A model generated the notes under the pieces. That model worked only from the letters and a program-made list of their open reading frames with translations. It searched no databases and was not told where the DNA came from. 64,000 nt of DNA from Cenococcum geophilum (taxonomy: Eukaryota). Below, piece after piece: positions 8,903-64,000 of the stretch (position 1 is the stretch's first letter; every line of letters starts with the position of its first letter). Location: positions 9,486,001-9,550,000 of the forward strand of contig CP158635.1 of NCBI GenBank assembly GCA_050273025.1. Direction: 5' to 3'. Made by a program: the position numbers and the translations under genes.

Positions 8903-8961
8903 TGTTACGGACCTTATATTAGCAGTAGTACGACTACTAAAAAGAGATATAAGCGGGTTAG

Positions 8962-10885
8962 TGTCACGGAGTAAGTATAAGTGGCGATAATATATAGCAA
9001 GGTAGATATTATTAAGCTATGTATATAAACTGTATAAGGAGGTTAAAGCGTTACGTAAAGAAAGAAGGTAGGAAAACGGGAAGAAAAGGCATATATTATT
9101 AACTTAGTTGCTTAGTTAATACGTACATAGGGTAGAATAGGGTTTAGGTCGTAGTCCTAACAAAACTTAGCAGAATGCCGTAGATTACCATTAGATTGCT
9201 ATTAAATTGCCATTAAATTACCGTTTTGCGGTTAGTCTCTAATTACTAAGTTAGTAGAAATAGGTGGATGTATATAAGGTGTTATAGGGGTATCCCATAA
9301 TAGTACCCCCCCTTTAAACTTAAGCTTTTACGAGATAGGGCTATAGTAGTTTTAGGTAGAGTTTATAAAAGTCTTCTACGGCTCATATAAGTCCTATAGA
9401 GTTAACGGGTTCCTATAAGGACTTAGTAAAACCTCTCCATTTTATAAAATATATATATTAGCGTTTCCGTTTATTATACTTAATATTATTAATTCTCTTA
9501 ATAAAGTACTTATTCTTACTATCTACTTTAACTAATAGGGGAGGGTCCTATATCTATTTAGGCAAGGCGTCTAATATAAGGGTAATAGGGTAAAGGACTG
9601 ATATATAGAATATAGAGTAGATTTTAACCGTATTAGGGAGCTTTAGTTAGTAGGTGTTAGGTAACGAAGTCACCTCGCCTATATATATTGTTCCGCACAG
9701 CTATACCTAGCATTAAGCCAGTTACTCGTTTACCTTTTATAGGTTTATGTGGCTAAGTAGTGCGGAGCTTATCACCTCATAGTAGGCGTAGAAGGAAATA
9801 ACCTTTTTAACCTTATAAGGGCCAGCGTTCTTCTAATTAAGCTTTTTAGTAGGTTATTTTATATTTAGATTTCTTATATTTAGCCAGACGAAGTTACTAA
9901 TTTAGTAAGCTAGTACTAGGGTTTATTTCTTATTCGCTACGGCTTTATAGACAAATTAAGCCTATATTATTTCGTTAGTAAGAAACTACTATAGTTCCTC
10001 TATCTTTTCTATAAATTTATTTGCTTTTATAATTTATAAGGCGTAGTAAGCAGGGCGAGGAATATTACTAAAGGGTTTAAAACCTATTTGTAAATACTAG
10101 CTATAGTTAGCCAGAAATAGGGAGACCTTTATAGTTTCCAAGACGGAATTATTTATAGTAAACTTGGTAAATACAAGCCAATTAATCTAGTTATCTTATA
10201 AGTACAACGTATATATCCAAATATACTATTCTATTATAGCATTTATACATTCCGTTTAACTATCTATTTCTAGGTAGTATACTATAGATAATAGTGCTTT
10301 AATATGGAGTTAAATAGTTAGTTTTTTCCAAAATATAGAGATAAACTAGCTGCCTTTATTAAAGACAATCATTTTAGGGAGTCTATAGAGTTTCTATATA
10401 TAATCTAGGAATAGTTAGGCAACAGTAAGTATTAATATATTAGGGCAGGCGATTAAGTATCTTATCTTAGATAGTTAGTCTATAACTACTATAATATTTA
10501 TACAGCCCTTACTTACAGGGAGGTCAATAATAAAGTTAATTAAGATGTTCTTCTATTTTTAGTTTAGAACAGGTAGTAGCTTTAGAAGGCCGTTATACGT
10601 CTTATATAAAGCTTTAGCTTATTAGTAAATATAGCAGCTAGAGACGTACTTTCGTATTATATTATATATATTTAGCTAATAGTATTCTTATTAGAGCAGT
10701 TCTAGGGGTTTTCCTTAGCCTAGGTAGCTAGCTATTAGTAGATTATATATATATTTAAGGAGCTTAAGCTTAAGTTTATTATAGTTAGGTATAATTAGGC
10801 GGTTCTAGTAATATAAGCGGTTTTTATAGGCTTTATATCTACTTAAAGAAATCTTTTTAGAGCGTCTAATACCATCCAATCTATT
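8962..10885 (-). mobile_element. Second Ty3/Gypsy element, 3' part (integrase, GPY/F region, PPT, 3' LTR 8962-9302)
   Basis: LTR TGTCACGG...CCCATAATA (RIP form of CCCGTGACA). Minus-strand purine tract AAAGGGGGGGTAC abuts the LTR. Degraded integrase (HPE.DGQTE-like) at ~10180-10290. Confidence 0.8.
9655..9781. mobile_element. 127-bp solo LTR nested in the Gypsy integrase C-terminus
   Basis: TGTTAGG...CCTCATA ends, 5-bp TSD GTAGG (9650-9654, 9782-9786). Removal rejoins the host reading YAY-LKLP. Confidence 0.7.
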
Positions 10886-10888
10886 CTA

Positions 10889-12093
10889 AAAAAGGCCCCC
10901 CCAAATCGCTCCTTAAACTACTTTAAAAGGTCTAAACAGCCTACCTTTAGAGTATAATAGGCGGATATAAGCGAACGGCTACAGTACTGCTTTAAAAGGA
11001 AGCTAATATTCCCCCCCTATAACTATATATTAAAGCCGCTGCAATATAAAGGGCGTAAAAGGAACGTAACTCTAATATTATAAAGTATATTAAGATACGC
11101 TTAAATAAACTATAGAGGGACCCTAGGGCGCCTTATAAAAGAATAAACCAATAACCTTAAAGTAGGGAAGATATATTAGAGAAATAGGTAAAGAAAGTAG
11201 AAAAAAAATAGTACTGCTTTAGGGCCTAGGCCTATATAGAGAAGAAAGGGAGACGTATAAGAGGCTAGTAAAGATAATAGTAAGAAAGAGAAAGGAGCTA
11301 GAGTATAAAAGAATGCTAGGAAACTATCTACCGTAATATAATACTGGCTAGACTAACGCTAAAGAGGTATATAGGAGTTAAAGGTATAGAGGCTAACTAA
11401 GGTAAGAGGAACCTAAGCTGTAGTATAGTTAACGCTATAGGGGGTAAATACTTTAGGGCTCTAAGAAGGCCTAATAAAGGTAGAAAATATAATAGTAATA
11501 CTCTTAAGATTAGGAATAATAGGACTAAAAGACTAGCTCTACTAGGTAGGTATCTTAGTAGGTAGCCTAAGATATAAATATAGCTGGCTAAGATAAACAC
11601 TAAAATATATAATACTATTATGCCCCTTATATACTAACTAAGAAGTAATACTCTTAGTAGCTAGTATAGAGAACTATAAAACACTACTCTTAATATAAAA
11701 AGGCCTTAAGGCGGTTACCTAGTAGCTTATTAGCTAAAATATATTAAACTAGTTCTAGGTTATAAAGGAAATAGCAATAAAGGGCGAGGGGGCGAGTAAT
11801 GGGCGCCCCCTAATAACTCTATAGTAGTAGAGTAAAGTTTACGATACTAGCGCGTCCGTAGGCTTGTTACGGCAGTAGTGGTCCCCAAGGAGGTCAAAAA
11901 GTAAGGTAGTAGGAGCACCACAGGTGACTCGCAGGCGCCTCGCAGGCGCCTTGCAGGCGAGTCCCAAAAGGCAGGGAGATGGATCACGGGGTTTTCTCAA
12001 ATAGAGTTTTCTCCCCACATGTACATAAGGAGTAGTCCGCGTGGGCCCAATAGGGATCCGAATCGGACGTTAAGCAATGAATTATTATTATTA
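10889..12093 (+). mobile_element. Tad1-like LINE 3' part with (ATT)n tail, copy A part 2
   Basis: Matches ~39945-41153 and ~63508-64000. Ends GTCCGCGTGGGCCCAATAGGGATCCGAATCGGACGTTAAGCAATGA(ATT)n. Confidence 0.85.
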
Positions 12094-12244
12094 CCATCCG
12101 ATCCAGACGTTTGGGGAGCTGGAACAGGCCAAACAAGTGCAAGTGCGGAGATGAGGGAACCCCGGGTTACCTCTTTCGGATGCAAACACTTCGTGACGAC
12201 GCGTCGAACTTTCAACGGCATTTCAATTAACAACGCTTGTAAAC

Positions 12245-13647
12245 ATGTCGCGCCAAAGCACCACGCAGCCACGAAATCTGACTTTGACAGAGGAACTAGA
12301 GAAGTTGGAGCAGTCCATAACTCTAACACTACAAGGCAAAGACTTGAGTCCACAAATACCACGCGCAATATTAATCATTTTCGTGCAGAAATCGACTACA
12401 ATTTCAGCCGCGCCCATCGTATTGTTACTACTAGCATCCTCCCAATTGTCGAGCAGTACGCAAAACATTCCGAAGCAGTCTGGGAAGGCTCCAAGGTTGG
12501 TACACTATTACAATGCTCGTATTTTAAATATTCTGGCATCTAACCCTGCCATTCATAGTTCTGGAAACAATTCTTCGAAGCCAGTGCCAATGTTTCCCTA
12601 TCAGGCTACGAAGAGGCTGCTGCGGATGAATCTACCACTCACGAAGACACACAAGCGTCTCAAACTTATGATAGCGAGTTAACTGAGGATACCGTGACCG
12701 GCGCGACCGCCACACCCCCAAAACCCTCCTCCTCTCACACCGACGAGGGCCATGACGACACCTCTATTCTCTCCTCTCCGTCTCTTGCGCATGCACACAG
12801 CACCCCACGCGCACCACATACCAGTACGAAAGCCCAAGCAAGTAGCGCAGCAGCAGGCGCAACATTTGCGGACTACCCATCTCCCTACGAAGCGCTCAAG
12901 CGGGAGGTCCATGGGGGCGCCGCATCTCCGGGCCCCGACCCGATAACACCGGGCAAAGCACAGGCACTACCAGACATGACAATGACTCCTACCTCTTCGC
13001 CTTTCATGCCCACTGCTACACAACGACGAGTCAGTGCCGCGCCAACAAACACCGACCCACTACTGCATCGCGTGCTGGACAAAACATATCGTATCGCCGC
13101 AACGCCGCATACAGCACGGAAGCAGAAGCAGGCTGTTGGGTTTACTCCCGGCACCTCTTCGCGGCCAGCAGCGCCACGATGGGAGGACGACTCCTCTCCT
13201 CCCTCGTCACCAGCGCCCCAATTGCGCGCGGACATATTCTCTTCGCCGCTGAAAGCGCCCAGAACACCAGGTGTAAGCGTGCAACGCACTCCCGCACGAG
13301 GCACGGACAACAGATTCAGGATCAGCGGAACTGGTGTGTTCGGCACGGGAGGGCAGGGTGTGTGGGAGAGTGACAGCGACGAGGACGATGCGTTGGATTT
13401 CAGTCCGCCTAAGACGATGCAGTTTCATGTTCCGCAGAGCAGGCTGCTTCAAACACCGGGTAAGCTATCGCTGATACTTTTTTGTCTACTAGTAGCAACT
13501 AATGAATTTGTAGCTCGTGAAGCAAGTAAGCGTATTGTGGAAGACCTGCTCCTTACAGCTGGAGGGGATATTACTGATGAATTTGAGGGAGAGGAGGACA
13601 GTCCGAGTGTTGTAAGGCGGAATCAGGAACTGGACGATAGTTTCTAG
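12245..13647 (+). CDS. ASK1: DASH/Dam1 kinetochore complex subunit Ask1 (exons 12245-12335, 12389-12495, 12559-13459, 13514-13647)
   Basis: The spliced product reads LTEELEKLEQSITLTLQEIDYNFSRAHRIVTTSILPIVEQY...FWKQFFEASANVSLSGYEE, the DASH_Ask1 domain, and ends TPAREASKRIVEDLL. Intron 1 is GC-AG, the others GT-AG. Confidence 0.92.
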
Positions 13648-32240: not shown

Positions 32241-32242
32241 TA

Positions 32243-34200
32243 CCCATCTTACCATTGGGAACAATTGATTTTCCAACTTTTAAGACCTAATTCCTGCTGC
32301 CTAGCGAGCTAGAGGTGGATTTATTTGTCGTTTTACCCCCTTTCCCCCAACAGAAAATTCTTCTTAGGGGTGGTCCTAGCTTATAAGCAAGGCACGGATA
32401 GGAACACCAAAACCACTACTACCACTACCACTAATACCAAAACTATAAAATATAGACTTTTCCTAGGTTTTTCTTCTATAGAAAGCAAAAGCCTAATAAA
32501 ATAGGGGGCGTAGGTACTTTTCTATATCTCCTTTAGTCAGATTTTCTTTAGTAAGAGGAGGATTGCCTTTAGGGCTTTTCTGCTAGTAAAAGCCTTACAA
32601 GTCCTTTTTTTAGTAGTGTTTTCTACTTCTAATAGGAAAAGAAAATAACTATACTAGTCTTTTTAGCTAGTTTTTCTACTACCTTTTAGCCTAATCTCCC
32701 TAGAAATCTTCTAGTAGGATTAGTAAGGAGAAAGGGCGTAGATGGATAGTAAAAACTAGCAAGGCTTTTTGCCTAGTTTTTTACCTCTGGGACTAGGAGA
32801 TAAGAGACCTAAGGAGGTTATTATCTACTATAAAAACTAGGAACCCCCCTAATAAGATATAAAATGCCAAGGCCTAATAGGTCTAAAAAAAAACCTCCTA
32901 TAAATAAGTAATGAAGAGTCTATATTTACCTTTTCTCCCCCTTCTCCCCCTTCTGGCCTCTTTAGGATAGGAGAAAAAAGAGGACATCCTTAGTCTTCTC
33001 CCGAAAAAGAAAACCAAAAACCTGTAAAAAAGACAACAAAACTAATAACTACTACGGCTGGTACGCCTAGTATACCTTCCTATTCCCTTTCTTTAGAACA
33101 ATATCTAAGCGAGGCTCTAGATAGCCTAATTAAGGCCTATAAAGGGCTAGAAGACGAAGAAATAGTAAAAATAAGTTGGAAAGGTAGCGGAATATACACA
33201 AAGTATCCTATTAGGAGAAAATCCCTTTACATAAGAAAAAGAAAAAGAAAAGACAAACAATGTCCTAAAAGGACTAGTAGAAGAAGTAAGAGCTCTTTGT
33301 AAGGAGGTAGCTCCTATTAAAGAAACTTACGCAGAGAGGCTAAAGAAGGACCTCCCTTCTTCGTCCTCCCTACCCTCCTTATTACTACCTTTTACCCCTT
33401 CTTCTTCTAGTAGGAGTTCTACTTCTACTAGAAGTAAGAAAAAGCAACTATAAGAAAGGAAGCTAGTCTTAATTACAAACGAAAAGGACTAACCTTTAGA
33501 TACCTTCTCTATACGAAACAAAGTTAATCAACTATTTGCTTCAAAACTGCAAGTAAAAAAGCTAGTACTAGCGTCTATAGCTAGAACTAAAGGAAAACAA
33601 AATATTCTTCTTATGACTACAGAAGAGTATAATATAGATTTCCTAGTCAAATATAAGGATATCTAGTATAACTACTTTACCTTCTAAAGAGAACAAAACT
33701 TAGAACCCTAGGTTTAAATTATAGCCTATAGGGTTCCTACCCTACCTTTTCTAAAAGAGGGAGGCTTTAAGCTTCTAAAAGAAGAAACTGAGACCTTTAA
33801 TCCTATAGGGATATAAGGACTACCTAGATAGATCTTAACTAGTGTAAAAAGACACGATTTACAAACCAGATTTGGCTCTATAGTTTTTACTATAGAAAAC
33901 GAGGAAAAAGATAAGAAATCCTTAAGTAAAAAGAGATTTTAATCGCAGGTATAGCTACTAAGGTAGTAAAATACCTCGAAGTCTCTTTTACTACGCAGTA
34001 CACTAGCTGCCAAAAATTTGGCCATATAGGAGACAGATGCTCTACTAGGGCTTATAGATTTTATACGGCTATATATCTATCTAAAGACCACGCCTGTCCT
34101 ACTTGTATAATAATAGGCAAGCCTTGCAAGTATACTACCCCTCTTTGCATTAATTGTAAAGAAAACCACTTTACTAATAGTAAGGACTGCGAGACCCTTT
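32243..34200 (+). mobile_element. ORF1(gag)-type non-LTR retroelement, copy 1 (3'-truncated, 5' end interrupted by pogo)
   Basis: Reverse-complement homolog of ~49855-51503. RIP-broken ORF MPRPNRSKK... with CCHC knuckles at ~34000-34190. Confidence 0.8.
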
Positions 34201-36125
34201 TACTACCCCTTAGACCTTCTAAGATACCCTAGAAGTATAGTATAAAAGGTAGATATACTATAAAGGAATATAGGCTAGGTAAAGGCAGGGCACGTAAAAC
34301 TAGCTAAAAGGTTATACCTAGGTTTTTTATAACCGACTACGGTACCCTGCTAAACTACTACTGTTTTACCTATGTATTGCCTACGTATTGCTTACGTATT
34401 GCTTACATATCACTTATATATCACGTTGTATTAGTTACGTCTTAGTCTCCCCTTTTATTTATTTCTATACCTTCCTTATATATATATAGGCGCTTTAGAG
34501 CTACATATACAATTAAGTCGTTTATTTAATTCTTTACACTAATATTTAATATTAATCTTTTAGAAAGGAGCTCTTGCTACACCCGGCCCAAAAAGACCAA
34601 AACCAACCAAAAGAACCCTGAAAAACACCTAGAGAATCCCCCTGAGATGCATGCATCGCAGGGGAGGCACACGTCGAACGACGGTGGCTCGCACTCGCGC
34701 GCGACCGCTAGAACTATGCCCAGCAATGGCCCTCCATAATAAAGATAGGCGAATACCATACCATAAAGTGGAAATACCTCTATTAAGAAGGCATTTAATA
34801 AAATATAAAGCCTATTAGACGCGTTTAGTATCTAAAATTATAGGGGAGTAACCGTTAGCTATAATAAACTAATATAGCTAGTAGAATAACTCCGCTAGTC
34901 TAGTAAACCTTAGGCGCCCCTTTAGTAAACCCTTAATTAAATCCTCTAATAGCTAAGTAAAATTAAAAATAAGTATAATCCCCCCTTACCGGCGAACCGC
35001 ACCTAGGCCGCTATAGCTACGCTTTTATAGTATAGGGAACCTACCCCCCTTAAGTTAATAACCGGGTATATAATTATAATATAACTAAATATAGAATAAG
35101 TAGAGGGGCTTAGGGGATAATTAGAAATAGAAGTTCTTATAGAGATATATAAAGAGGTTTATAACGCTATTATAGTCCAATACCTTAAGAGTAGAGATAT
35201 TAGAGTTACCCTAAAGGACTAATAGGTAAAGGAATAAGCCGTAAGGGTAGGGGATAGGCTAGGAGAACGTATTAGCATAAAAGTACTCTATAAGAATTAC
35301 CTAGTTAAAGTCCTAGCGGTTCCTATAAGCCTTAAGGTAGAAAAGGGACGCTAGGTAGATAATATAGCAATTATATAAGAGATAGTAAGATAAATGGAAC
35401 GCCTTATACTAGGACTCGAAATCACCTAAATTTAATAGCTTTAACAGGAAAATATAAACTAAGCATATAATAAGAATAATAAGAGAATATAAGGGTTGCT
35501 AAAGACTCGCTAGGGAGACACCGGACGAACGTATGGCTCCCTTATTATTAGTATATATACACTAGGAATACAAAAACTCCTTATCTAAAAAGGAATAATT
35601 ATAAATAGCCTTATATATAATACAAGGCTCTACAACTATAGACTACGCCTAAAATAATACTATCGCTATATATAATGGGGACATACCTAATCTATATGCG
35701 CAGCATAGGTATACTACGGCCACTGTATAGGCCCCTACGATATAAGATATTACTTAAATTAAGACTAAATAAAATACGCGAACTGCTACTAAAGCATATA
35801 TAAGGCGTAGGAGAAAAAAGACTATATTAAATACAGGAGACAAAAGGCAAGGGCTTAATAGCTACGGGAATAACTACACGCTAGGTTATATAAATGGAAA
35901 TAATAGGCGATAAGCTAGGGGGACATAGGCGCCTTCTTAGCGTTTCCTACCTTTAATACTAGAGGGCTAGGCTAGCCATCCTAAGCCTTAACGGGCTAGA
36001 AGTAACGCCGTATAATATTACTAAACTAATTAGGGATATAAGGGTTATAGGGGATATAAGGGAGAGGACGCCCTATAGGAAGACCCCTATAAACAGTAAT
36101 AGCAGGCTTAAAACTAGGATAATTA

Positions 36126-37152
36126 GTAGTAGTAGTAGTTCTTTAATTAACGTCTGATACAGATCCTATCTTAGCCCACGCAGACTACTCCGTCACAGGG
36201 GGGAAAACTTGTAATTTACATGAAGAAAACCCTGCAGTTGGGGGAGGAAAAACCCTATAAGCAGCCTTAGTAGGATAAAAAACCCCAATTTGCCATATTT
36301 GCAAATAGCAGCGGCCCTACGGGCCTACTACACGTCCTCCTCCTTAGATGTTTTAAACTCCTTAGGAACCACTGCTTCCTTCTCTAGCTTATTAAAGCTA
36401 GGGTTTACTACGTCCCAGCTAGGCCTTACTAATCAATTGCTATATCTTATTGTCTCTTTATATCCCATATCTTGCCTATCCCCTATATACTATCTCTTAT
36501 ATAGACCACTGCCATATACGCCTTGCCTCCCCCCCCCTAAAGCCATCGAAGGCGTAAGGGGGATTTATCTATTCTAACTACCGTAATACTAATAAGCGAG
36601 CGGGATATTATGTATATTTAGGTATCTTTTATACCTAGGCCCTAGCTAGGCCCTCTCTAAGGGTTACTACTCCGTTAAAAGGAGATAGGGAAAACCGTAG
36701 GTCGCAATCCAAGCTGCTAGGTAGTATTTGGTAGTTGAAAACGGTAAGTAACTGCATGCTCCGCGGGCGACTGCCCTAGGGGTTAGGAGGGGCCGTATAT
36801 TTGCTCATTCGTTCGTTCGCTCGTACGCTTATTTATCTGTTAATATAAGGTCGTCAATGCTTTCCATTGGGGGCTAGGGGATGCTTTTAAAAGCTGTTTA
36901 TTCACGTTAGATTATATAGGTGCTTAGTAGGAGAACTAGTGGCTGTATTATAAAGGGGTACCGTTAGTAGTGGTTTTTGAGATCTCACTATCCTATATAA
37001 AAACTTTTCACTATGCCCCACGACGCACATAACCACTAGGTCCTACTTGCACGCGCTATATAACGTCTCTGCGTTAGCTCTGGGTCTAAACTTTAAAGAC
37101 CTAGGTTCGTAGCCGTCACCACGTATAGGTGCAGAATCCGTTTTCGACGGCC
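36126..37152 (-). mobile_element. Non-autonomous SINE/SIDE-like retroelement: HDV-like ribozyme + LINE-like 5' UTR + LINE-like 3' end + (ACT)n tail
   Basis: 14-bp TSD AACTAGGATAATTA (36112-36125, 37153-37166). The empty site is visible in LINE copy C at ~60715-60728. The 5' ~420 nt are homologous to 58705-59110, and the 3' end resembles 12028-12093. Confidence 0.9.
37067..37152 (-). ncRNA. HDV-like self-cleaving ribozyme (RIP-touched copy)
   Basis: Minus strand: GGCCGUC-gaaaacgga-UUCUGC-ACC-UAUACGU-GGU-GACGGCU-AC-P4(GGUCU/AGACC)-CUAAC-GCAGAG. G1 abuts the TSD. Confidence 0.75.
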
Positions 37153-40100
37153 AACTAGGATAATTAAGAATTAGACTTAATACGGTAAATATAATATTCG
37201 TAGCTGACCTATAAAGGGTATATAGCCGACTAGTAAAAATAGGGGAAGAACTAATAATAATAACAGATTTAGATATAGAAGCGCTAATAGGAATATAAGA
37301 TATAGGAATAGAAAGCTCTATATAAAATAAGTAGTAACTAGGGTATAGACATAAGAAATAGAAGCTCCAAATATTTTAGAGAAAGTAGAAATAGAAGAAG
37401 TGAGGAACAAAGGAGAGTCGAAGGACCCTTACTAGGGGTCCGCTACCTATCCATTATATAGTATAACTGCGGCAACACAAACTACTACCTCGCAAGGCCC
37501 CTACTAGACAGTCTAGACCTAGAGAAACACTATATCCTTACTATATAAGAACCGTATTATAATACCTTTATATAATTAATATACTGCCCCTAAGGATTCT
37601 AGCTCCTATATAAACTAAAAGTAGCTATACGCGTGTGCTTTATAATTAGTAAGGCTATCAGCCTGTCCTTATAGTTATAGTAGGTAGTTAACCTAGATAT
37701 TATAGTTATAATAATTTAAACATATAGGGGACCGGTATAAATTATTAATGTATATAACCCTAGGGTTAAAGGGGTCCTATAAATAAAGAATATTATATTA
37801 GTAATAAGCTTACTAGAAACCGAAGGTATAGAGTTTATCCTACTAGGAGATATAAACCTCTACTACCCGCAGTAGGGGAGTATCTATATTGCTGCAGATT
37901 AATAGTCAGAGTGCCTACTAAGAGCTATAGATATTTAGGGCCTTAAGCTAGCCACCCCCCTAGGAGTAATTATATAGCAATAAGGCACCGCCAGAAGTAT
38001 AATTGACCTTATATTTATAGATGAAGGCCTATACTAGAGACTTAAAAGGTATAACCCTAAAGAAGAATAGGCACTTACCCTAGACTATATCCCTATCTAG
38101 ATATAGCTAGACCTAGATACTAAAGTGTAACTAAATAGAAAAAGATATATAATAAGGAAGCTTAAGACAGATAGTTTTCTTAATATAGTTAAATAACAAT
38201 TTTAAGACCTAGAAGAAATCCACCTAATACTAAACAAGCGAGGCTTATTAGCTACCCCCAAGGAAATTAACTAAAGACTAAAAAGGATCTAGGCAGCGAT
38301 TAAAAATAGGCTAAAAGAGCACTACCCGATCTTAAAACTAGGCCCTTATACGCAATATGTATGGTCTATATAATGCGCAGTTCTGGTTACTAGCTAATAA
38401 TAAGTAAGAAGAAAATATATAAGTAGCTATAACCCTAAAGACAAGAGATAATATAAAGACATAAGAAACTAGCTAAAGAATACCCTAAAAAAAGAAGTAA
38501 GGAATAACTAGAGACGGTTTATAAACGAGTATACTTCTAACCTAAGCCTCCCCTATAATAAGGGCCTTTGGGCTATAGCAAAATAGGTAAAGAAAAAGGC
38601 AGGGCGCCTAGTAGAAGACCTATACCTACTACTCCTATAAAGAGCAGAAGAATTATAGGCTATAAACAATAATAATAAAAAGGCAAAAATCTTTATAGAA
38701 AGGTTCTTCCCCTAACCGGCTTTAGTAGACCTTAGTAATATCACGGATAAAACACTAGTAACTTACCTATAGGTTAACAGCGATATAATAATAGAGGAAA
38801 TAGCTAGAACTATTAGCCGCCTTTTAAATAATATAGCACTAGGACCAGATAGGATTTTAAATAAGGCCCTAAAAACCTATAGGCCACTTATAGCACCTTA
38901 GCTTACAGATATAGCCAAAGTATACTTTGCTATAGGCTACTACCCGCAACTTAAAAGATCTATAACGACGGTTATTCTATAAAAAGAAAGTAAAGCAGAT
39001 TACTTAATCCCAGGAAGCTACCGCCCTATTGCCTTAAAAAACACCCTTAGTAAGATTTTAGAAAGGGTAATAGCGGAACGCATAGCAGATATAGTAAAGA
39101 AATACGCCCTACTACTATAAAGCTAAATAGGGGCAAGAAAAAACCGCTTAACACTATTAGCACTTACGCTACTCGCTACTACTATTAAATTTATATAGGC
39201 GATACGAAAGGACTTTATAGTATTAATGCTTAGCTTAGATATTAGTAGTACCTATAATAATATACCCCATAAGCGTCTCCTGTATATCCTTAGGGCAAAG
39301 GGCTTCTTAGAATAGATTATATAATTTATCTAAGGGTTTATAGGCTAGAAAGAAACATTACTAGTCTTTAGCGAATACTAGAGCCCCCCTATTATAGTTA
39401 CAATAGAAATACTATAAGGATTACCCCTCTCGCCTATACTCTTCCTTTTCTTTATAAGTAACCTACTTAACTCCTTTAAGGAAGGGGCAACCTAGGGGAT
39501 AGGCTTTATTAATAATATAAACCTAATTATATACGGGCCAATAGCTATAAAGAATTGCAGAATACTAAAGAAAGCCTATAATACTTATATAGAATAGGCA
39601 AAACGTTATAGAGTCTAATTCTTACCAGAGAAATACTAGCTAATCCATTTTATAAGAAAACGTAACTAATCTATAGATCTTTAGCATATAATTCGCATTT
39701 AAGGCTTTAGGGGTTAACCAGTTTAGGGCCTAAGGGTATTAGAAGTATAGGTAGATAGTAAGCTCCGGTGGAGCGCATATGCGGCATAAGCGGCCTGTAA
39801 AGGCTAAGCATAGTTCATTACTTTATCTAGGATTGTTAATTCTATATAGGGTCCATGCTTTTAGAGGTTACGCCTACTATATACAGTAGTCGTCCGGCCA
39901 ACTATAATATATAGATCCAGTATTTGGGCCATTAGAGAAACTAAAAAGGGCCCCCCTAAATTACTCCTTAAACTACTTTAAAAGGTCTAAACAGCCTACC
40001 TCTAGAGTATTATAGGCGGGTATAAGCGAACGGCCATAGTACTGCTTAAGAAGGAATCCAATATTCCCCCCCTATAGTTATATATTAAAGCCGCTGTAAT

Positions 40101-41919
40101 ATAAAGGACGTAAAATAAACACAACTTTAATGTTATAAAGTATATTAAGACACGCCTAAGTAAACTATAAAGGGACCCTAGGGTGCCCCGTAGGAGAATA
40201 AACCAATAACCCTAAAGTAGGGAAGAGATATTAGAGAAACAGGTAAAGAAAGTAGAAGAAAAATAGTGCCGCTTTAGGGCCTAGGCCTATATAGAGGAGG
40301 AAGGGAGACGCGTAAGAGGTTAGTAAAGATAATAGTAAGACAGAGAAAGGAGCTAAAGTAGAATATATAAGAACGCTAGAAAACCATCTACCGCAATACA
40401 ATACTAGTTAGATTAATGCTAGAGAGGTAAATAGGAGTTAAAGGTATAGAGGCTGACTTAGGCAAGATAAACCTAAGCTATAGCATAATTAACGCTATAG
40501 GGGGTAAATACCTAAGGGCTCTAAAAAGGCCTAATAAAGGTAGAAAATATAATAGTAATACTCTTAAGAACAGGAATAATAGGACTAAAAGATTGGCTTT
40601 ACTGGGTGGGTGTCCTAGTAGGTAGCCTAAGATACGAATATAGCTGGCTAAAATAGACACCAAAACACGTAATACTGCTATGCCCCCTACGTACTAATTA
40701 AGAAATAATACTTTTAGCAGCTAGCATAGAGAACTATAATACACTGCTCTTAATATAAAAAGGCCTTAAGGCGGTTACCTAGTGGCTTATTAGTTAAAAT
40801 ATGCTAAATTAGTTCTGGGTTATAAGGGAAATAGTAATAGAAGGTAAGGGGGCGAGTAGTAGGTGCCCCCTAGTAACTCTACAGTAGTAGAGTAATAGTT
40901 TGTAATACTAGCGCATCCGTAGGCTTATTACGGCAGCAGTAGTTCCTAAAGAGGTTAAATAATAAGGTAGTAGAGCACTATAGGCAACTTATAGGCGCTA
41001 AGTAGGCGAGTCCCAAAAGGCGGGGAGATGGATTATAGGGTTTTCTCATTTTTCTTAAATAGAGTTTTCTCCCTATATATAAATAAGGAGTAGTCCGCGT
41101 GGGCCTAATAGGGATCCAAATTGGACGTTAAGCAATGAATTATTATTATTATTAATTCTTCACACTGTAAAAGCTTACATTTTTCCTATATAGAGATTTT
41201 TCCTATAAATAGAAGGTAGAAGCCTATATAGACCTAAAAAAGGGACTAAATTGGGCAATAAATAGAATAAATAATAATATTTATTTTTAGATTTATATAG
41301 TAAAAATAATTAAGTTAATAGTTTTTTCTATAAACTCTAATTATATTTTTAATTTCTTTAATAAAAGACTTACCTAATACTTTATTTTTATTAAAAAAAC
41401 TCTAATTATTTTCTATATATAATAAATCTTTTTAAAAAATAACATTTTCTTTTTATTATTAGATATTTGTTAGTATGCTTTAATATAGTGTAATAGACGT
41501 AATATACGTGCAGTGCGATATATAATTAGATTCTTAAGGTTCTATTCTATAATATAGTGTTAATATATATACGCGTCTCGCGTAGGTTACGTGCTGTGTA
41601 TGTGACACGTAAAACGAATATATACCGACACTAGCAGCTCTTTAAATGCTAGGAAACTAATAGAACCTCCTTTATCGGGAAAATATTCGCAGGCTGGGTT
41701 TTAAGTTGACTTTGTTAAGCGCGTTTCGCGTAATTGACATACAGTTGACCAACTTAACATATTTAAAAGTTAAATAACATATAATTGACCTGTAATTGAC
41801 CTATAATTAACTAACTTGATATATTTAAAAGTTAAATAATACGCAGTTAACTAACTTATATATTTCTTAATATACAATTAAGGTAATATAATATATTATT
41901 TTTAAGTTATATGCTTAAG

Positions 41920-42330
41920 AGGCTCTATATAAAGCTCTATACAAAGCTCTGCAATAGAGGCTCTGTACGAGGCTCTACACGAGGCTCTGCACGAAGCTCT
42001 GTATAAAGCTCTGCGATAGAGGCTCTGTATAAAGCTCTGTGTATAGATGCTCTGCACGAGGCTCTGCATGAAGCTCTGCGTATAGAGGCTCTGCACGAGG
42101 CTCTGCACGAAGCTCTGCGTACAGAGGCTCTGCACGAGGCTCTGCACGAAGCTCTGCGTACAGAGGCTCTGCACGAGGCTCTGCACGAAGCTCTGCGTAT
42201 AGAGGCTCTGTACGAGGCTCTGCACGAAGCTCTACACGAAGCTCTATACGAAGCTCTACGTATAGAGGCTCTGTACGAGGCTCTGCGCGAAGCTCTGTAT
42301 ACGGAGGCTCTATACGAAGCTCTATATCGG
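41920..42330. repeat. 39-bp minisatellite (12+12+15 subunits) in the Copia 3' region
   Basis: Unit GAGGCTCTGCAC-GAGGCTCTGCAC-GAAGCTCTGCGTATA. Confidence 0.9.
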
Positions 42331-42437
42331 GTCCCCGCACACGCCTCTGTTAAGTTACCCCCTTTGCAGCTACCTTATTTTTTACCCTTTCTTACATCCT
42401 CCCTACCTTAGGAGGTACTGGAACGGCAGCTAGCAGA

Positions 42438-43250
42438 GGACCGTCGCTAGAACTAGATAACCGTCGCTAGAACTAGACAACCGTTGCTAAAACTAAATAA
42501 CCGTCACCAAAACTAGACGACCGTTGCTAGGACTAGATAACTGTTGCTAGAACTAGACGACGACCGTTTAAACAACTAGCTAGTAAATACTATAAATAAT
42601 TTAATTAATTAATTGATCGAATTAAACTAGAGCTTTAATATCGGCCTATTACCGAATCGAATTAAGACTTCCTAGGGAGGCACCCCAGACGACTACTGTT
42701 TAAATATATAGCTAGCGAACGGCTATAAAGAACGATTTGAATTAATAAGAGCCTTTAATTAGGCCGACTCCTCCCCTAAATTAAACTAGATATTAACGTA
42801 GGCAGGTAGGTAGGTAGGTAGGTAGGTAGGTAGGTAGGAGAGGACCGTTGCCAGAACTAGACGACCGTCGCTAGAACTAGACGACCGTCGCTAGAACTAG
42901 ATGACCGTCGCTAGAACTACGACCGTCGCCAGAACTAGACGACCGTCGCCAGAACCAGACGACCGTCGCTAGAACTAGACGACCGTCGCCAGAACTACGA
43001 CCGTCGCCAGAACTAGACGAACGTCGCCAGAACCAGATAACCGTCGCCAGAACTAGATGACCGTCGCCAGAACCAGATGACCGTCGCCAGAACCAGACGA
43101 CCGTTGCCAGAACTAGACGACCGTTGCCAGAACCAGATGACCGTCGCCAGAACCAGATGACCGTCGCCAGAGCTAGATGACCGTCGCCAGAACCAGACGA
43201 CCGTCGCTAGAACTAGTAGACGACTGTTACCAGAACCAGACGACGACCGT
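42438..43250. repeat. 20-bp minisatellite in two blocks (42438-42570, 42843-43250)
   Basis: Unit GACCGTCGCCAGAACTAGAC, head-to-tail with no spacers. Confidence 0.9.
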
Positions 43251-43469
43251 TCAAATAACTAGCCAGCGAACACCACGAACGATTTAATCGATCAATTAAA
43301 TTAATCTAGAGCCTATTACTAAATTGAATCGAATCAAGGCCTCCTAGGGAGGCACCCTAGATAACCACTATTTAAATATACAGCCAGCAAACGGCTATGG
43401 AGAACGATTCGAATTAATTAGAGCCTTTAATTGGGCTGACCTCTCCCCCGAATTAAATTAGACACTATA

Positions 43470-43875
43470 GGTAGATATAAATAGGTAGGCAATATAGATA
43501 GGTAGATAATGCAGATAGGTAGACGATATAGATAGGTAGGCGATATAGATAGGTAGGTGATGCAGATAGGTAGGTAATGCAGATAGGTAGGTAATGTAGA
43601 TAGGTAGACGATATAGACCGGTAGATAATGTAGATAGGTAGGCGATGCAGATAGGTAGACGATGCAGATAGGTAGACAATACAGATAGGTAGGTAATGTA
43701 AATAGGTAGGTAATGCAGATAGGTAGGTAATGTAGATAGGTAGACAATATAGATAGGTAGATAATGTAAATAGGTAGGCGATATAGATAGGTAGGTAATG
43801 CAGATAGGTAGGTAATGCAGATAGGTAGGTGATATAGATAGGTAGACAATGTAGATAGGTAGCGGATATAGACAT
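43470..43875. repeat. 17-bp minisatellite
   Basis: Unit AGATAGGTAGRYRATRY, roughly two dozen copies. Confidence 0.9.
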
Positions 43876-44166
43876 AATAGATTATATAAAGAAGTGTATA
43901 TAATTTATCTTAATAGCTTTATAAACGGCTTTAAAGTAGCCTTTATTATCTAAAATTATAAGTTATATAGGTTGCGTAGGTTGCGTAGGTTGCGTAGGTT
44001 ATATAGGCTATACGCAGGCTGCGCGCAGGCTATATGTTAAATGAACTCGATATAGGCTGGTTTATTAAGTTAGTTAATACCCTTAATGGCCCGCTAACGA
44101 CGCCAACTTCTAGCAGCTGAGGTCATTTACAAGGGACAATATTTTGCCGATGTTTATAATAGTAAG

Positions 44167-49457: not shown

Positions 49458-51565
49458 TTTTTTTTTTTTTTTTTTTTTAGGTCCGTTGTATTATACTACG
49501 TACAATACTGCGCATGCAGCCTCTAGGCTATGGCGCTATAGTTCTATATACATAAATCCTTTCTAAGCAGCTTAATATGTACTAGTAGCTATGTCCTAGT
49601 AGTTTATAAACCCCTAAATTAGGAGTTTATAGTTTCCTAGTAAAATACTAAGATACTACAACTACTAGGGAATGAGAAAATGGTAAGAAAAACTATAAGA
49701 AATCCTAACCCCTGTCCCTGTCCTTTTGTAATTTATTTCTGTCCTTTTGCTCTCTAATATTATTTTAAGAGCCTAGTAGGAGTTGCCTCCTTCTAGAATC
49801 CTATCTGTTTTTATTCTTCTATAGAATCTTCTTCGCGTACTAGTTTAGCAGCTTTAAGAGTCTCGCAGTCTTTACTATTAGCAAAGTGTTTTTCTTTACA
49901 ATTAATGCAAAGAGGGGTAGTATGCTGGCAAGGCTTGCCTGTTATTATACAGGTAGAACAGGAATGGTCTTTAGATAAATGTGCAGCCGCACAGTATCTA
50001 TAGGCCCTAGTAGAGCACCTGTCTCCTATATGGCCAAATTTTTGGCAGCTCGTACACTGCGTAGTAGGAGAGACTTCAAGGTATTTTACTACCTTAGTAG
50101 CTGTACCTGTAATTGATATCTCTTTTTGCTTAAGGATTTCTTGTCTTTTTTCTTCGTTTTCTATAGTAAAAACTATAGAGCCGAATCTGGTCTGTGGATC
50201 GTGTCTTTTTACACTAGATGAGATCCATCTAGGTAGTCCTTGTATCCTTATAGGATTAAAGGTCTTAATTTCTTCTTTTAGAAGCTTAGAGCCTCCTTCT
50301 CCTAGGAAAGGTAGGGTAGGAACCCTATGGGCTATAATTTGAACCCATGGTTCTAGTTTTTGTTCTCTTTGAAAAGTAAAGCAATTATGCCAGATTTCCT
50401 TGTATTTAACTAGGAAATCCGCATTATACTCTTCCGTAGTTATAAGAAGAATATTTTGTTTTCCTTTAGTTCTAGCTATAGATACTAAAACAGGTTTTTC
50501 TACTTGCAGTTTTAATGCAAATAGTTAATTGACTTTGTTTCGTATAGAGAAGGTATCTAAAGGTTAGTCCTTTTGGTCTGTAATAAGGACTAGCTTCCTT
50601 TCTTATAGCTGCTTTTTCTTACTTCTAGTAGAAGTAGAAGGGGTAGGAGATGGTGTTGGTAAGGAGGGCAGGGGGGACGAGGAAGGGAGGTTCTTCTTTA
50701 GTCTCTCTGCGTAGGTTTCCTTAGTAGGAGCTACCTCCTTACGGAGAGCTCTTACTTCTTCAACTAATCCTTGTAGGATATCTTTTGCCTTTTCTTTTCC
50801 TTTTATAAAGGGATTTTCTCCTACTAGAATACTCCGTGTATAGTCCTCTAGCTATTTAACTTGTTCTTTTTCTTCTTCTTTTTCTTCTTCTTCTAGCCCT
50901 TTATAGGCCTGTATTAGGCTTTCTAGGGCCTTTTGTAGGTGTTGTTTAGGAGAAAGGGGAGGGAAAGATATACTAGGTATACCAGCCGTAAAAGTCATTA
51001 ATTTTGTTGTCTTTTTTGCAGGTTTTTGGTTTTCTTTTTCAGTAGAAGACTGAGGATGTCCTCTTTTTTCTCCTGTCCCAAATAGGCCAGGAGAAGGAGA
51101 AGGGGCAGAAAAAGTGAATGTAGTCGTAGACTTATTATCACTTATTTCTATAGGAGGTTTTTTTTTATGCCTATTAGACTTTGGCATCTTATAGGGGGGT
51201 TTCCTAGTTTTTTTTTTCTACCCTTATACCTTTCTCCTTACTAATCCTACTAGAAGATTTCTGGGGAGATTAGGCTAAAAGGGAGTAGAAAGACTAGCCC
51301 CTATTGGTATTGGTATTGGTGGTAGTAGTAGTGGTTTTAGTGTTCCTGTCCGTGCCTCGCTTATAAGCTAGGACCAACCCTAGAGAAAATTTTCTGTTGG
51401 GATAAGGGGGTAAAATGACAAATAAATCCACCTCTAGCTCGCTAGGCGGTAGGAATTAGGTCTTGAAAGTTGGAAAATCAATTGTTTTTGATGGTAAGAT
51501 GGGTATGCGTAAGTTTTAGAGTGTGGCGCTACCTTTTGGTAAGGTTGCATGTGCGGTAAAGGTTT
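49458..51565 (-). mobile_element. ORF1-only, poly(A)-tailed non-LTR retroposon, copy 2 (complete) inserted in the Copia leader
   Basis: T23 run at 49456-49478 and 13-bp TSD TATATTGTGTATT (49445-49457, 51566-51578). RIP-interrupted ORF from ATG 51187 (MPKSNRHKKKPP) to CCHC knuckles at ~49860-50065. No room for and no motifs of EN/RT. Confidence 0.85.
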
Positions 51566-58344: not shown

Positions 58345-58704
58345 CCACTGCGTGCACGGTCCCACTTAATGCACGGTTTTCCTTACCAAACCCATAACTT
58401 AATAACTTTTTAATAGAATTTTATAAAAATTTAAATATAGCTTATTAAATACTAAAACTACAATTTTATAATAAAAAATAATAATAAAAGATTAATTAGC
58501 TTATATATAGTACTAAAATATATAAAAATATAAAAATATAGGTTATTATAGTATAAACTAAAAAACACTACCTTTTATATAGTAATAGTTAAAGTACTTA
58601 TTTTATTATAGATTTTTTAAGAGATTTCTTATTTTTTTTTAAAATATTTTTTTTTTAAAGCTATATAACTACTTATTAATAGTAAATTATAATAAAATAA
58701 ATAA
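58345..58704. mobile_element. Heavily RIPed DNA transposon end interrupted by LINE copy C
   Basis: GCACGGTTTTCCTTACCAAA resembles the reverse complement of the pogo-like subterminal sequence at ~31779-31800. It is followed by extremely AT-rich sequence. Confidence 0.4.
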
Positions 58705-58789
58705 GGCCGTCGAAATCGGACTCTGCACCTGTACGTGGTGACGGCTACGAACCTGGTCTTTGAAGTTCAGATCCAGAGCCAACGCAGAG
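58705..58789 (+). ncRNA. HDV-like self-cleaving ribozyme at the LINE 5' end
   Basis: P1 GGCCGUC(58705-11)/GACGGCU(58740-46) with a G1-U wobble. P2 CUCUGC(58721-26)/GCAGAG(58784-89). P3 ACC/GGU with 7-nt L3 UGUACGU. P1.1 GU/AC. P4 hairpin ~58753-58776. J4/2 C-C-A-A-C with the candidate catalytic C at 58779. Confidence 0.82.
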
Positions 58790-61700
58790 ACGTCGCATAG
58801 CGTGCGGACAGGACCTGTGGTGGTTATAGGCGTTAAGGGCGGTGGTGAAAAATTTTCAGATGGTGAGATCTTGAAAACCACTACTGTTGGCTCTCTACAG
58901 TACGACGACTACTACATTCTCCTATCCAGGGCACCTGTACGATCCAACATGGATGCACAGTATTCGATATCACCCCCCGTCCCCCAGTAGAAAGCATTAA
59001 TAACCTTATATTAATAAATAAGCAAACGTAAACAAACGAACGAACGAGTAAATATACGGCCCCTCCTAACCCCTAAGGCGATCGCCCGCGGAGCATGCGG
59101 TCACTCGCCGTACTGCTATAATACTACTAAAAGCGGCAGCTAGATAACCCCGTAAAGATTAACGGAACTGGAGCTCTTGCTGCACCCGGCCCAAAAAGAC
59201 CAAAACCAACCAAAAGAACCCTGAAAAACACCCAGAGAATCCCCCTAAGATGCATGCATCGCAGGGGAGGCACACGTCAAACGACGGTGGCTCGCACTCG
59301 CGCGCGACCGCTAGAACTACGCCCAGCAATGGCCCTCCACAATAAAGACGGGCAAATACCACACCACAAAGCGGAAATACCTCTATTAAGAAGGCATCTA
59401 ACAAAATACAAAGCCTATTAGACGCGTCTAGTATCTAGAATTATAGGGGAGTAACTATTAGCTATAACGAACTAATGCAGCTAGCAGAATAGCTCCGCCA
59501 GTCTAGTAAACCTTAGGCGCCCCTCTAGTAAACCCTTAATTAAATCCTTTAACGGCTAAGCAAAATTAAAAATAAGTATAATCCCCCCTTACCGGCGAAC
59601 CGCACCTAGGCCGCTATAGCTACGCTTTTACAGCATAGGGAACCTACTCCCCTTAAGTTAACAACTGGGTATATAATTATAATATAACTAAACACAGAAT
59701 AAGTAGAGGGGCTTAGGGGATAATTAGAAACAGAAGTCCTTATAGAGATACGCAAAGAGGTTTATAACGCTGTTATAGTCTAACACCTTAAAAGCGGAGA
59801 TATTAGAGTTACCTTAAAGGACTAATAGGCAAAGAAACAAGCCGTAAGGGTAGGGGATAGGCTAGGAGAACGTATTGGCATAAAAATACTCTATAAGGAT
59901 TACCTAGTTAAAGTCCTAGCAGTTCCTATAAGCCTTAGGGTAGAAAAGGGACGCTAGGTAGATAACACAGCAATTATATAGGAGATAGTAAGATAAACGG
60001 AACGCCTTATACTAGGACTTAAAATCACCTAAATCTAATAGCTTTAATAGAAAAATATAAACCAAGTATATAATAAGAATAATAAGAGGATATAAGGGTC
60101 GCTAGAGACTCGCTAGGGAGACGCCGGACAAACGTATAGCTCCCTTATTATTAGTATATATACACTAGGAATGCAAAAACTCCTTATCCAAAAAGGAATA
60201 ATTATAAATGGCCTTATATATAATACAAGGCTCTATAACTATAGACTACGCCTAAAATGATACTATTGCTATATACAATAGGGACACACCTAATCTATAT
60301 GCGCAGCACAGGTGTGCTACAGCCACTATATAGGCCCCCACAATACGAGATATTGCTTAAATTAAGACTAAATAAAATGCGTAAACTGCCACCAAAGTAT
60401 ATATAAGGCGTAGAAGAGAGAAGACTGCATTAAATACAGGAGATGGAAGGCAAGGGCTTAATAGCTGCGGGAATAACTGTACGCTAGGTTATACGAATAG
60501 AAACAACAGGTAATAAGCTAGGGGGACGCAGGTGCTTTCCTAGCGTTTCCTACCTTTAACACTAGAGGGCTAGGCCAGCCATCCCAAGCCTTAACGGGCC
60601 AGAAGTAACGCCGCGCGATATTACTAGACCGATTAGGGACATAAGGGTTACAGGGGATATAAGGGAGAGAACGCCCCATAGGAAGACCTCTATAGATAGT
60701 AACAGCAGGCTTAAAACCAGGATAATTAAGAATTAGACTTAATGCGGCAAATATAACATTCGCAGCTAACCTATAAAGGGTATATAGCCGACTAGTAAGA
60801 ACAGGGGAAGAACCGGTGATAATAACAGATTTAGATATAGAAGCGCTAACAGGAACATAAGACACGGGAATAGAAAGCTCTATATAAAATAAGTAGTAAC
60901 TAGGGTATAGATATAAAAGATAGAAGCTCTAAATATCCTAGAGAAAGTGGAAATAGAAGAAGCGAGGAATAAAGGAGAGTTAAAGGACCCTCGCCGGGGG
61001 TCCGCTACCTATCTATTATATAGTATAATTACGGTAATATAAACCACCGCCTTACAAGGCCCCTACTAGATAGTCTAGACCTAGAGAAATACTATATCCT
61101 TACTATATAAGAGCCGTATTATAATACCTTTATATAATTAATATACTGCCCCTAAGGATTCCAGCTCCTATATAAACCAAAAGCAGCCATATATATATAC
61201 TTTATAATTAGCAAGGCTATTAGCCTATCCTTATAGTTATAGCAGGTAATTAACCTAGACATTATAGTTATAATAATCCAAACATATAGGGGACCGGTAT
61301 AAATTATTAATATGTATAACCCTAGGGTTAAAGGGGTCCTATAAACAGAGAATATTATATCGGTAATAAGCTTACTAGAAACCAAAGGTACAGAGTCTAT
61401 CCTATTAGGAGATATAAACCTCTACCACCCGTAATAGGGGGGTATCCATATTACTGCAGACTAACAGTTAAAGTGCCTACTAAGAGCTATAGATATCTGG
61501 GGCCTTAAGCTAGCTACCCCCCTAGAAGTAATTATATGGCAATGAGGCACCGCTAAAAGTATAATTAACCTTATATTTATGGACGAAGGCCTATACCAGA
61601 GACTCGAAAGGTATAACCCCAAAGAAAAATAGGCACTTACCCTAGACCATATCCCTATCCAGATATAGCTAGACCTAGATACTAAAGCGCAACTAAATAG

Positions 61701-64000
61701 AAAAAGATACGCAATAAGGAAGCTTAAGATAGATAGTTTCCTTAATACAATTAAACAATAACTCTAAGACCTAGAAGAAATCCACCCAATACTAAACGAG
61801 TAAGGCCCATTAACTACCTCTAAGGAAATTAACCGAAGACTAGAAAGGATCTAGGCAGCAATTAAAAATAGGCTAAAAGAGCACTACCCAATCTTAAAAC
61901 CGGGCCCTTATGCGCGACACATATAGTCCACATAATACGCAGTTCTGGTTACCAGCTAATAATAAATAAGAAGGAAATATATAAGCAGCCACAACCCTAA
62001 AGACGAGAGACAATATAAAGACATAAGAAACCAGCTAAAGAATACCCTAAAAAAAGAAGTAAGGAATAACTGGAGACGGTTTATAAACGAGCATACTTTT
62101 AACTTAAGCCTCCCCTATAATAAGGGCCTTTGGGATATAGCAAAATAGGTAAAAAAAAAGGCAGGGCGCCCAGTAGAAGACTTATACCTACCACCCCTAC
62201 AAAGAGTAGGAGAATTATAGGTCATAAATAACAACGATAAGAAGGCAAAGATCCTTATAGAAAGGTTCTTCCCCTAACCGGCTCTAGCAGACCTTAGTAA
62301 TATCACGGGCGAAATACTGGTAACTCGCCTGCGGGTTAACAGCGACATAATAATAGAGGAAATGGCTAGAACCATTAGCCGCCTTTTAAATAATATAGCA
62401 CTAGGACTAGATAGGATTCTAAATAAGGCCCTAAAAACCTATGGGCCACTTATAGCACCTTAGCTTACAGATATAGCTAAAGCATGCTTTACTATAGGCT
62501 ACTACCCGCGACTCGGAAGATCTATAACAACGGTTATCCTATAAAAAGAAGGTAAAGCAGATTACTTAATCCCAGGAAGCTACCGCCCTATTGCCTTAGA
62601 AAACACCCTTAGCAAGATCTTAGAAAGGGTAATAGCGGAATATATAGCAGATACGGTAAAAAAACACGCCCTACTACTATAAAGCCAAATAGGGGCAAGA
62701 AAGAACCGCTTAACACTATTAGCACTTACGCTACTCGCTGCCACCATTAAATCTGCATAGGCGATGCGAAAGGACTTTATAGTATTAATGCTTAGCCTAG
62801 ACATTAGTAGTGCCTATAACAATATACCCCACAAGCGTCTCCTATATATCCTTAGGGTAAAGGGCTTCCTAGAATAGATTATACAATTTATCTAAGGGTT
62901 TATAGGCCAGAAAGAAACATTACTAGTCTTTAGCGGATACCAGAGCCCCCCCATTGTAGTTGCAACAGGAATACTACAAAGATTACCCCTCTCGCCTATA
63001 CTCTTCCTTTTCTTTATAAGTAACCTACTTAACTCCTTTAAGAAAGGGGCAACCTAGGGGATAGGCTTCGTTAACAATATAAACCTAATTATATACGGGC
63101 CAACAGCCGCAAAGAACTATAGAACACTAGAGAAAGCCTATAACACTTATATAGAGTGGGCAAAACGTTATAAAGTCTAATTCTTACCAGAGAAATACCA
63201 GCTAATCTATTTCATAAGAAAACATAACTAATCTACAGATCTCTAGCATATAATTCGCATCTAAGGCTTTAGGGGTTAACTAGTTTAGGGCCTAAGGGTA
63301 TTAGGAGTATGGGTAGACAGCAAGCTCCAGTAGAGCGCATATGCGGCATAAGCGGCCTGTAAAGGCCAAGTACAGTTTATCACTTTATCCAGGATTATTA
63401 ATTCTATATAGGGTCCATGCTTTTAGAGGTCACGCCTACTATATACAGCAGTCGTCCGGCCAACCATAACATATAGATCCAGTATCTAGGCCATTAGAGA
63501 AACTAAGAAGGGCCCCCCAAAATTACTCCTTAAACCACTTTAAAAGGTCCAAACAGCCTGCCTCTAGAGTATCACAGGCGGGTATAAGCGAACGGCCACA
63601 GCACTGCTTAAGAAGGAATCCAATATTCCCCCCCTACAGTTACATATTAAAGCCGCTGCAATATAAAGAACACAAAATAAATATAACTCTAATGTTATAA
63701 AGTACATTAAGACACGCCTAAGTAAACTATAGAGGGACCCTAGGGTGCCCCGTAGGAAAACAAACCAATAACCCTAAAGTAGGGAAGAGATATTAGAGAA
63801 ACAGGTAAAAAAAGCAGAAGAAGAATAGTGCCGCTTTAGGGCCCAGGCCTATATAGAGGAGGAAGGGAAACGTATAAGAGGTTAGCAAAGATAATAGTAA
63901 GATAGAGAAAGGAGCTAAAGTAAAATATGTAAGAACGCCAGGAAACCATCTACCGCAATACAATACTAGTTAGACTAACGCTAGAGAGGCGAATGGGAGT
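58705..64000 (+). mobile_element. Tad1-like LINE, copy C, 5'-complete (ribozyme, 5' UTR, ORF1 from ~59250, APE, RT), runs off the window
   Basis: Colinear with copy B but with fewer RIP changes. Motifs LLGDINL (~61405), GSYRPIALEN (~62575), TGI(P)Q..PLSPILFLFF (~62965) and GFV(DD) (~63065). Confidence 0.92.

Follow-up and report, generated by a model that had tools for sequence, protein, structure and literature searches.

What kind of RNA is encoded by the sequence that begins at position 58705 of the window (the whole stretch of 64,000 nucleotides analysed here), and to which mobile element does it belong? In insects, other animals and trypanosomes it is already established that non-LTR elements can carry HDV-like ribozymes at their 5' ends. 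We estimate at roughly 70% the probability that the present sequence is an HDV-like self-cleaving ribozyme that makes up the first ~85 nt of an abundant, transcribed and non-coding retroelement of ~1 kb, referred to below as the S-type element.

All elements of the HDV nested double pseudoknot were found in 58705-58789 at the places given in the initial annotation, both by reading the sequence and as a descriptor match (Table 1). The DNA upstream of 58705 is A/T-rich and unrelated to the element, and the predicted cleavage site lies 5' of G58705. From its C-N-A-A context, just before the 3' strand of P2, C58779 would be the catalytic base. One copy of the family found in metagenome contigs (L038) is identical to 58705-58789. 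The annotation had also described P1.1 as GU/AC, in which both sides have changed and pairing is retained, and comparison with the consensus of RF02682 (F. prausnitzii HDV; L3 U-C-U, J1/4 A-G) bore this out. The two sequences are near-identical in P3, in the last four bases of L3 and at the start of the P1 3' strand, and share an A-U pair in P1.1; they differ at L3 base 2 (G here, C in RF02682) and at the paired J1/4 base (C here, G in RF02682), with a G-C instead of a C-G as the second P1.1 pair. Among the 121 family copies listed, 98 have GT at L3 bases 2-3 and keep a P1.1 that can form as G-C plus U-A, whereas 23 have AT, which breaks a P1.1 pair by placing A opposite C; no covariation of P1.1 was found within the family, J1/4 being AC in 121 of these 121 copies.

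Table 1. Coordinates of the ribozyme candidate, the S-type elements and the LINE copies in the window.
Feature	Position	Strand	Remarks
HDV-like ribozyme candidate	58705..58789	+	direct sequence reading; sole descriptor match in window
P1	58705-58711 / 58740-58746	+	7 bp, opening pair G58705-U58746
J1/2	58712-58720	+	
P2	58721-58726 / 58784-58789	+	6 bp
P3	58727-58729 / 58737-58739	+	3 bp
L3	58730-58736	+	7 nt, U first
P1.1	58731-58732 / 58747-58748	+	G58731-C58748 and U58732-A58747
P4 hairpin	58753-58759 / 58769-58776	+	one G-U pair; C58774 unpaired
J4/2	C58779-C-A-A	+	C58779 = presumed catalytic base
S-type 5' segment with ribozyme	58705..59166	+	family-like to ~59154, possibly 59166
S-type element, complete (~1028 nt), inserted in LINE copy B	36125..37152	-	direct reading
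5' target-site duplication, 13 nt, abuts first G of nested S-type	37153..37165	-	direct reading
3' target-site duplication, 13 nt, of nested S-type	36112..36124	-	direct reading
LINE body, heavily C-to-T/G-to-A mutated, runs off window	59170..64000	+	domains, copy B identity
LINE copy B, interrupted by S-type, ends (TTA)n	34567..41157	+	starts at 59170 equivalent

The family was collected by scanning metagenome contigs with a 27-base core pattern in which L3 bases 2-3 and two J1/4 bases were left open. This yielded at least 121 loci (L001-L121), and in 116 of the 121 listed a ribozyme of 75-90 nt can be recognised in full. Of the other five, contig ends truncate L035 and L111, the P1 5' strand is not recognisable in L011 and L092, and the 3' part is missing from L009. 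When the 5' ends of the 116 listed copies (flank of at least 30 nt) were aligned, G1 was indeed the start, as had been anticipated, and the flanks were unrelated up to -1: the information content was 0.06-0.34 bits at positions -1 to -9 and 1.6-2.0 bits at +1 to +11. The same edge is seen in the Logan contigs of two DNA runs, where the summed depth upstream of 58705 was 26-120 and 3-87 and that from the bin with 58705 onwards 21,000-98,000 and 3,300-13,300, respectively. Just ahead of 58705, 12 contigs of DNA run X1 differ in sequence (consensus agreement 0.51). The first base of the ribozyme is thus the first base of the element, and in one copy in the window target-site duplications can be read around it. 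At each of the positions -14 to -10, A or T was found in 109-114 of the 116 listed copies, in register with G1. This suggests that the LINE endonuclease nicks its target at a defined, A/T-rich site. The window equivalent of this A/T-only stretch ahead of S-type insertions is 37161-37165, where the readable target-site duplication has 13 nt.

The initial annotation was thus right that a retroelement starts exactly with the ribozyme fold (116 listed copies), but that retroelement is the S-type element and not, as proposed, a 5'-complete LINE. Among the 63 listed copies with at least 600 nt after G1, none runs into the LINE body, which itself starts at 59170, while 60 continue as the ~1-kb S-type element and three diverge early; the 60 resemble the window copy up to element position 401-456, the three over a shorter distance. 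A complete S-type element is present elsewhere in the window, inserted in LINE copy B, where the host LINE is duplicated over 14 nt in BLAST (60715-60728). It opens with the same seven bases as the copy at 58705, although its ribozyme is mutated in L3, P4 and J4/2, and it ends in a 3' tail like that of the LINE, with a run of (ACT)n. Its first 412 nt are 75% identical to 58705-59111 and its last 65 nt are 77% identical to the LINE 3' end, whereas its middle (412-962) has no other match in the window. We read the S-type element as non-coding because its open reading frames are not the same from copy to copy, in either frame or length; no conserved ORF common to the 13 least-mutated copies was found in the first 748 nt. 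The ribozyme belongs to this short, LINE-dependent element, not to the LINE.

It is unlikely, in our view, that the ribozyme segment is nevertheless the LINE's own 5' UTR, with 58705-64000 as a full-length LINE and the ~1-kb element as an internally deleted derivative of it. Such derivatives, which keep both LINE ends, exist as RIME for ingi and as NARTc for L1Tc. L1Tc and NARTc share a 77-nt ribozyme, as described in PMC3185411. In the window the segment directly precedes the LINE body, and the S-type element shares its first ~412-460 nt with the copy at 58705 and its last 65 nt with the LINE. The 0 of 63 listed long copies with the junction speaks against the LINE as owner and is yet not decisive, since non-autonomous partners commonly outnumber full-length LINEs. 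The likeness to the S-type family stops a few bases from the position at which LINE copy B starts behind unrelated DNA, which under this reading would be a coincidence of ~1 in 1000. In addition, the segment is near the commonest S-type subfamily (95% identical to L012 over 450 nt, and up to 98% over shorter stretches) and does not represent a LINE-specific lineage, and the LINE from 59170 onwards is already a complete unit.

For that LINE, the boundary at 59170 is defined by other copies. Copy B begins at the same nucleotide (34567), behind unrelated DNA, copies B and C have the same starting base, and from 59170 on the LINE body is 90% identical to copy B. An ATG is found at 59250, 80 nt past the start, followed by a Cys/His-rich, ORF1-like frame, and the translation of the body with stops read as X contains RVT_1 (8.8e-17) and Exo_endo_phos_2 (3.9e-5) domains. 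The window ends ~720 nt short of the 3' end of this LINE.

We found the family to be expressed. At least 0.53 of the sampled words were contained in 14 DNA runs (two organisms), and 0.28-0.33 in six metatranscriptome runs labelled 'fungus metagenome'. Among the raw RNA reads of run X24, the depth was 0 in the seven bins of 58555-58694, 27/66 in the bin with 58705 and, past that bin to 58994, 1169-7957 on one strand versus 37-127 on the other. The zero depth upstream says little, because the reads of other copies carry other flanks. RNA molecule ends were most conspicuous at 58717, 12 nt inside the element, and not at 58705 (498 ends at a depth of 1218); this pile-up could be due to library chemistry, to a structure-induced stop or to the polymorphic base 58716. 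In the RNA data, 58863 is joined to 58930 in 1405 RNA reads and in one RNA contig, and in no DNA contig. A GTGAG-like motif adjoins the start of the segment 58864-58929 and AG is found at its end; the segment is possibly replaced rather than removed. An intron at this position was considered but is not favoured, as many reads have other sequence there and genomic copies vary with no clean GT..AG deletion.

The RNA-seq coverage at the element edge would be the same for a cleaved 5' end and for transcription that starts at G1, and this leaves room for another reading, in which the fold is real and non-catalytic, an internal promoter starts transcription at G1 and the structure has another role (recognition by RT, RNA stability or translation-like functions). 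The first 77 nt of L1Tc act both as promoter and as ribozyme, according to PMC3185411, and the unusual P1.1 and the low Rfam scores of the present family would also suit a structure that does not cleave. We nevertheless hold this reading to be quite improbable, for two reasons. Capped LINE RNAs leave an extra G at the 5' junction, and no sign of such a cap-derived G was seen: G is found at -1 in 9 of the 116 listed copies. Furthermore, the G1-U pair, the U of L3, the C-N-A-A and the double pseudoknot are all kept between subfamilies, and a non-catalytic structure needs none of these.

This conservation was followed in an alignment (A1) of 89 sequences, consisting of 87 distinct loci and the two window copies, in which columns 23-49 are invariant by construction because they were fixed by the search pattern. 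Standard pairs occupy 97.3% of 2240 pair cells (88 distinct sequences), compared to 28-46% when the partners are slid by 1-3 columns. Of the 88 distinct sequences, 84 have G-U and 4 have A-U at the G1 pair, and the C at the catalytic position of J4/2 is nearly invariant (two sequences have T). Among the helices, two-sided changes are confined to P4; none was found in P1, P2, P3 or P1.1 in the 88 distinct sequences. In P4, the pair 54-72 is GC in 39, AU in 25, GU in 19 and other in 5 sequences, and the pair 52-76 is GC in 30, AU in 8, GU in 8 and other in 19. We consider this covariation modest evidence, part of which may be mutational, because G-to-A and C-to-T changes are of the repeat-induced point mutation type. 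The P4 hairpin has 5 to ~9 bp, with a total ribozyme length of 75-90 nt, and by eye the deletion variants are still hairpins.

The core was also compared between subfamilies. We used 92 loci, after dropping those with less than 340 nt after G1 and seven aberrant ones. The four subfamily consensuses (n = 29, 41, 7 and 9) differ from one another at 0-2 of the 35 core positions that are unconstrained. These differences all lie in the 1-22 segment (P1 5' strand, J1/2 and P2 5' strand), and by eye they fall in the unpaired J1/2 (column 13 and one extra A in alignment A1), while the 73-85 segment (J4/2 and P2 3' strand) is identical in all four consensuses. Outside the core, the number of differing columns is 3-15 of 25 in P4 and 30-83 of 353 in the sequence downstream.

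How often such a fold would be met by chance was estimated with a descriptor built from general HDV rules after the sequence had been seen: a 7-bp P1 with G first, a 3-bp P3, an L3 of 6-9 nt with U first, a 2-bp Watson-Crick P1.1, a P4 of at least 4 bp, C-N-R-A and a P2 of at least 5 bp. The descriptor search that had been suggested for the locus returned a single start in the window (both strands, 128 kb), at 58705 on the + strand. First-order Markov sequence of three compositions (3 x 3 Mb) gave 2, 0 and 1 starts, which corresponds to ~0.04 matches per window and, from 3 in 9 Mb, to ~3e-7 per fixed position. Without the P1.1 rule the window contained three starts (9795+, 58705+ and 23172-) and random sequence 21, 20 and 8 starts per 3 Mb.

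At the gathering score no Rfam match was found in the whole 64-kb window. In E-value mode there were four matches (301 nt), of which two lie on the + strand, each to an HDV-like family, and these begin at 58705 and cover the full model: RF02682 (13.8 bits, cut-off 44, E 3.4) and RF01787 (drz-agam-1; 13.2 bits, cut-off 37, E 4.9). When five family copies were searched, an HDV-family match was obtained for one of the five (17.7 bits, E 8.7). The best Rfam matches, at 13-18 bits, are far below the cut-offs of 44 and 37, and the genomic context of both families differs from that found here. Such sub-threshold scores weigh lightly, because HDV-like ribozymes share little sequence. Nested folding gave -24.9 kcal/mol (z = -0.63), an unremarkable value that 59 of 200 shuffled sequences reached as well, and RNAalifold favoured a competing helix between the P2 5' strand (58721-58725) and CAGAG at the 3' side of P4; neither method can represent a pseudoknot. 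The P2 5' strand at 58721-58725 can pair with either of two CAGAG copies, 58774-58778 or 58785-58789, and the alternative pairing might be a folding trap or a switch of the ribozyme. A chance resemblance, in which a GC-rich element start met a permissive descriptor, is hardly credible: the descriptor was written with the sequence in view, the folding z-score is ordinary and the Rfam scores are below cut-off, yet the match falls exactly on the position set independently by the 116 listed junctions, and the conservation of the core and the behaviour of P4 fit a ribozyme family.

Taking the ribozyme as the 5' end of the S-type element, we propose the following cycle, in which both the catalysis and the order of events are inferred. 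An S-type copy would be transcribed from its own start or by read-through, after which the ribozyme would fold and cut just 5' of G1, to leave an RNA that starts at G1 with a 5'-OH. At its other end this RNA would carry the LINE 3' tail and a trinucleotide run, and the LINE endonuclease and RT could use this tail for target-primed reverse transcription at an A/T-rich site. With a full-length cDNA, the new copy would again begin with the ribozyme and would be flanked by duplications of ~13 nt. At the present locus an S-type 5' segment (58705 to ~59166) would have become joined to a LINE body that runs from 59170. The composite 58705-64000 is explained equally well by a nested LINE, inserted into an S-type copy, and by RT template switching. 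Chimeras formed by RT template switching are known, like MINE of Magnaporthe (WEIRD and the MGL LINE) and the U6-L1 chimeras, and they are a possible parallel for 58705-64000, in which the 5' part of a non-coding RNA stands ahead of a LINE body. A bolder reading, which we regard as speculative and unlikely to hold as a whole, is that the ribozyme is a portable 5'-end module that is owned by a LINE-parasitic RNA of ~1 kb and is grafted onto LINE bodies by template switching, that promoter-less copies are cut from read-through transcripts, that this is the first such system in fungi and that its P1.1, with the G-C reversed next to a U-A, is a natural variant.

The arrangement found here has a counterpart in L1Tc/NARTc of Trypanosoma cruzi, for which PMC3185411 describes an HDV-like ribozyme (L1TcRz) in the first 77 nt that is active and cleaves at +1. 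Common to both systems is that the RNA of a non-LTR element opens with an HDV-like ribozyme, that a non-coding partner carries it and that P1.1 is reduced or non-canonical (PMC3185411 for L1Tc/NARTc). The present host, in contrast, is a fungus, and its ribozyme resides on a non-autonomous element and on a LINE only in one composite copy; moreover, the activity of L1TcRz was demonstrated, whereas cleavage by the present candidate is a prediction. HDV-like ribozymes are also described at the 5' ends of R2, R4/Dong, RTE, baggins and L1Tc in PMC6765202 and PMC3774820. For R2, R4/Dong, RTE and baggins they lie, like here, at the 5' junction of the element, and release from co-transcripts was proposed (PMC6765202, PMC3774820), but these are autonomous elements of animals, and R2 is specific for rDNA. 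The passages of PMC6765202 and PMC3774820 that deal with their distribution tie retroelement HDV-like ribozymes to metazoans, plants and trypanosomes, and not to fungi.

HDV-class ribozymes as such have been described in fungi (Li and Breaker 2017, PMC5640933): 11 fit the general consensus, and 230 representatives of a variant were reported from 26 species, two of which were found to cleave. That variant is recognised by three traits (PMC5640933): a C-G pair where cleavage occurs, a P4 that contains a loop E, and one additional base that separates P2 from P3. None of them is present at 58705-58789, where the pair is G-U, P4 is a plain hairpin and P3 follows P2 with no extra base. Retrotransposons are not mentioned in the main text of PMC5640933. 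Our literature searches brought up no HDV-like ribozyme from a fungal retroelement; an earlier mention is nevertheless possible. Activity of this ribozyme would assign a biological role to at least one class of fungal HDV-like ribozyme and would provide an abundant, expressed and easily assayed family with natural variants of P4 length and P1.1. It would also make the S-type element a clean case of a non-autonomous element that owns its 5'-processing device and borrows the 3' tail of a LINE.

The relatives of the LINE were traced through its ORF2. An intact homologue of 1026 aa (P0001) is 73% identical to the read-through RT region, and ~75 further homologues (31-46% identity) have endonuclease and RT domains. 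The Tad1 clade, to which the family may belong according to the initial annotation, is marked by its place in RT phylogeny and by an RNase H domain after the RT; RNase H (PF00075) was found in none of the closest ~75 ORF2 homologues and only in hits at 30-32% identity or less. The sole named homologue is from a powdery-mildew fungus.

Several features were observed around LINE copy B. A direct repeat of 12-13 nt is present at 34528-34540 and after the tail, and the upstream repeat lies 26 nt before the first base of the LINE, which places ~26 additional A/T-rich bases at the 5' junction (34528-34566 region). That these 26 nt are a mutated S-type or LINE leader was considered and rejected, as by eye they do not align to 59144-59169. 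A minisatellite block (41980-43923) with periods of 12/15, 17 and 20 nt adjoins the 3' flank of the LINE copy. Finally, inverted copies of another repeat family (32241-34199 and 49856-51505), 80-96% alike over ~2 kb, bracket ~16 kb that include LINE copy B.
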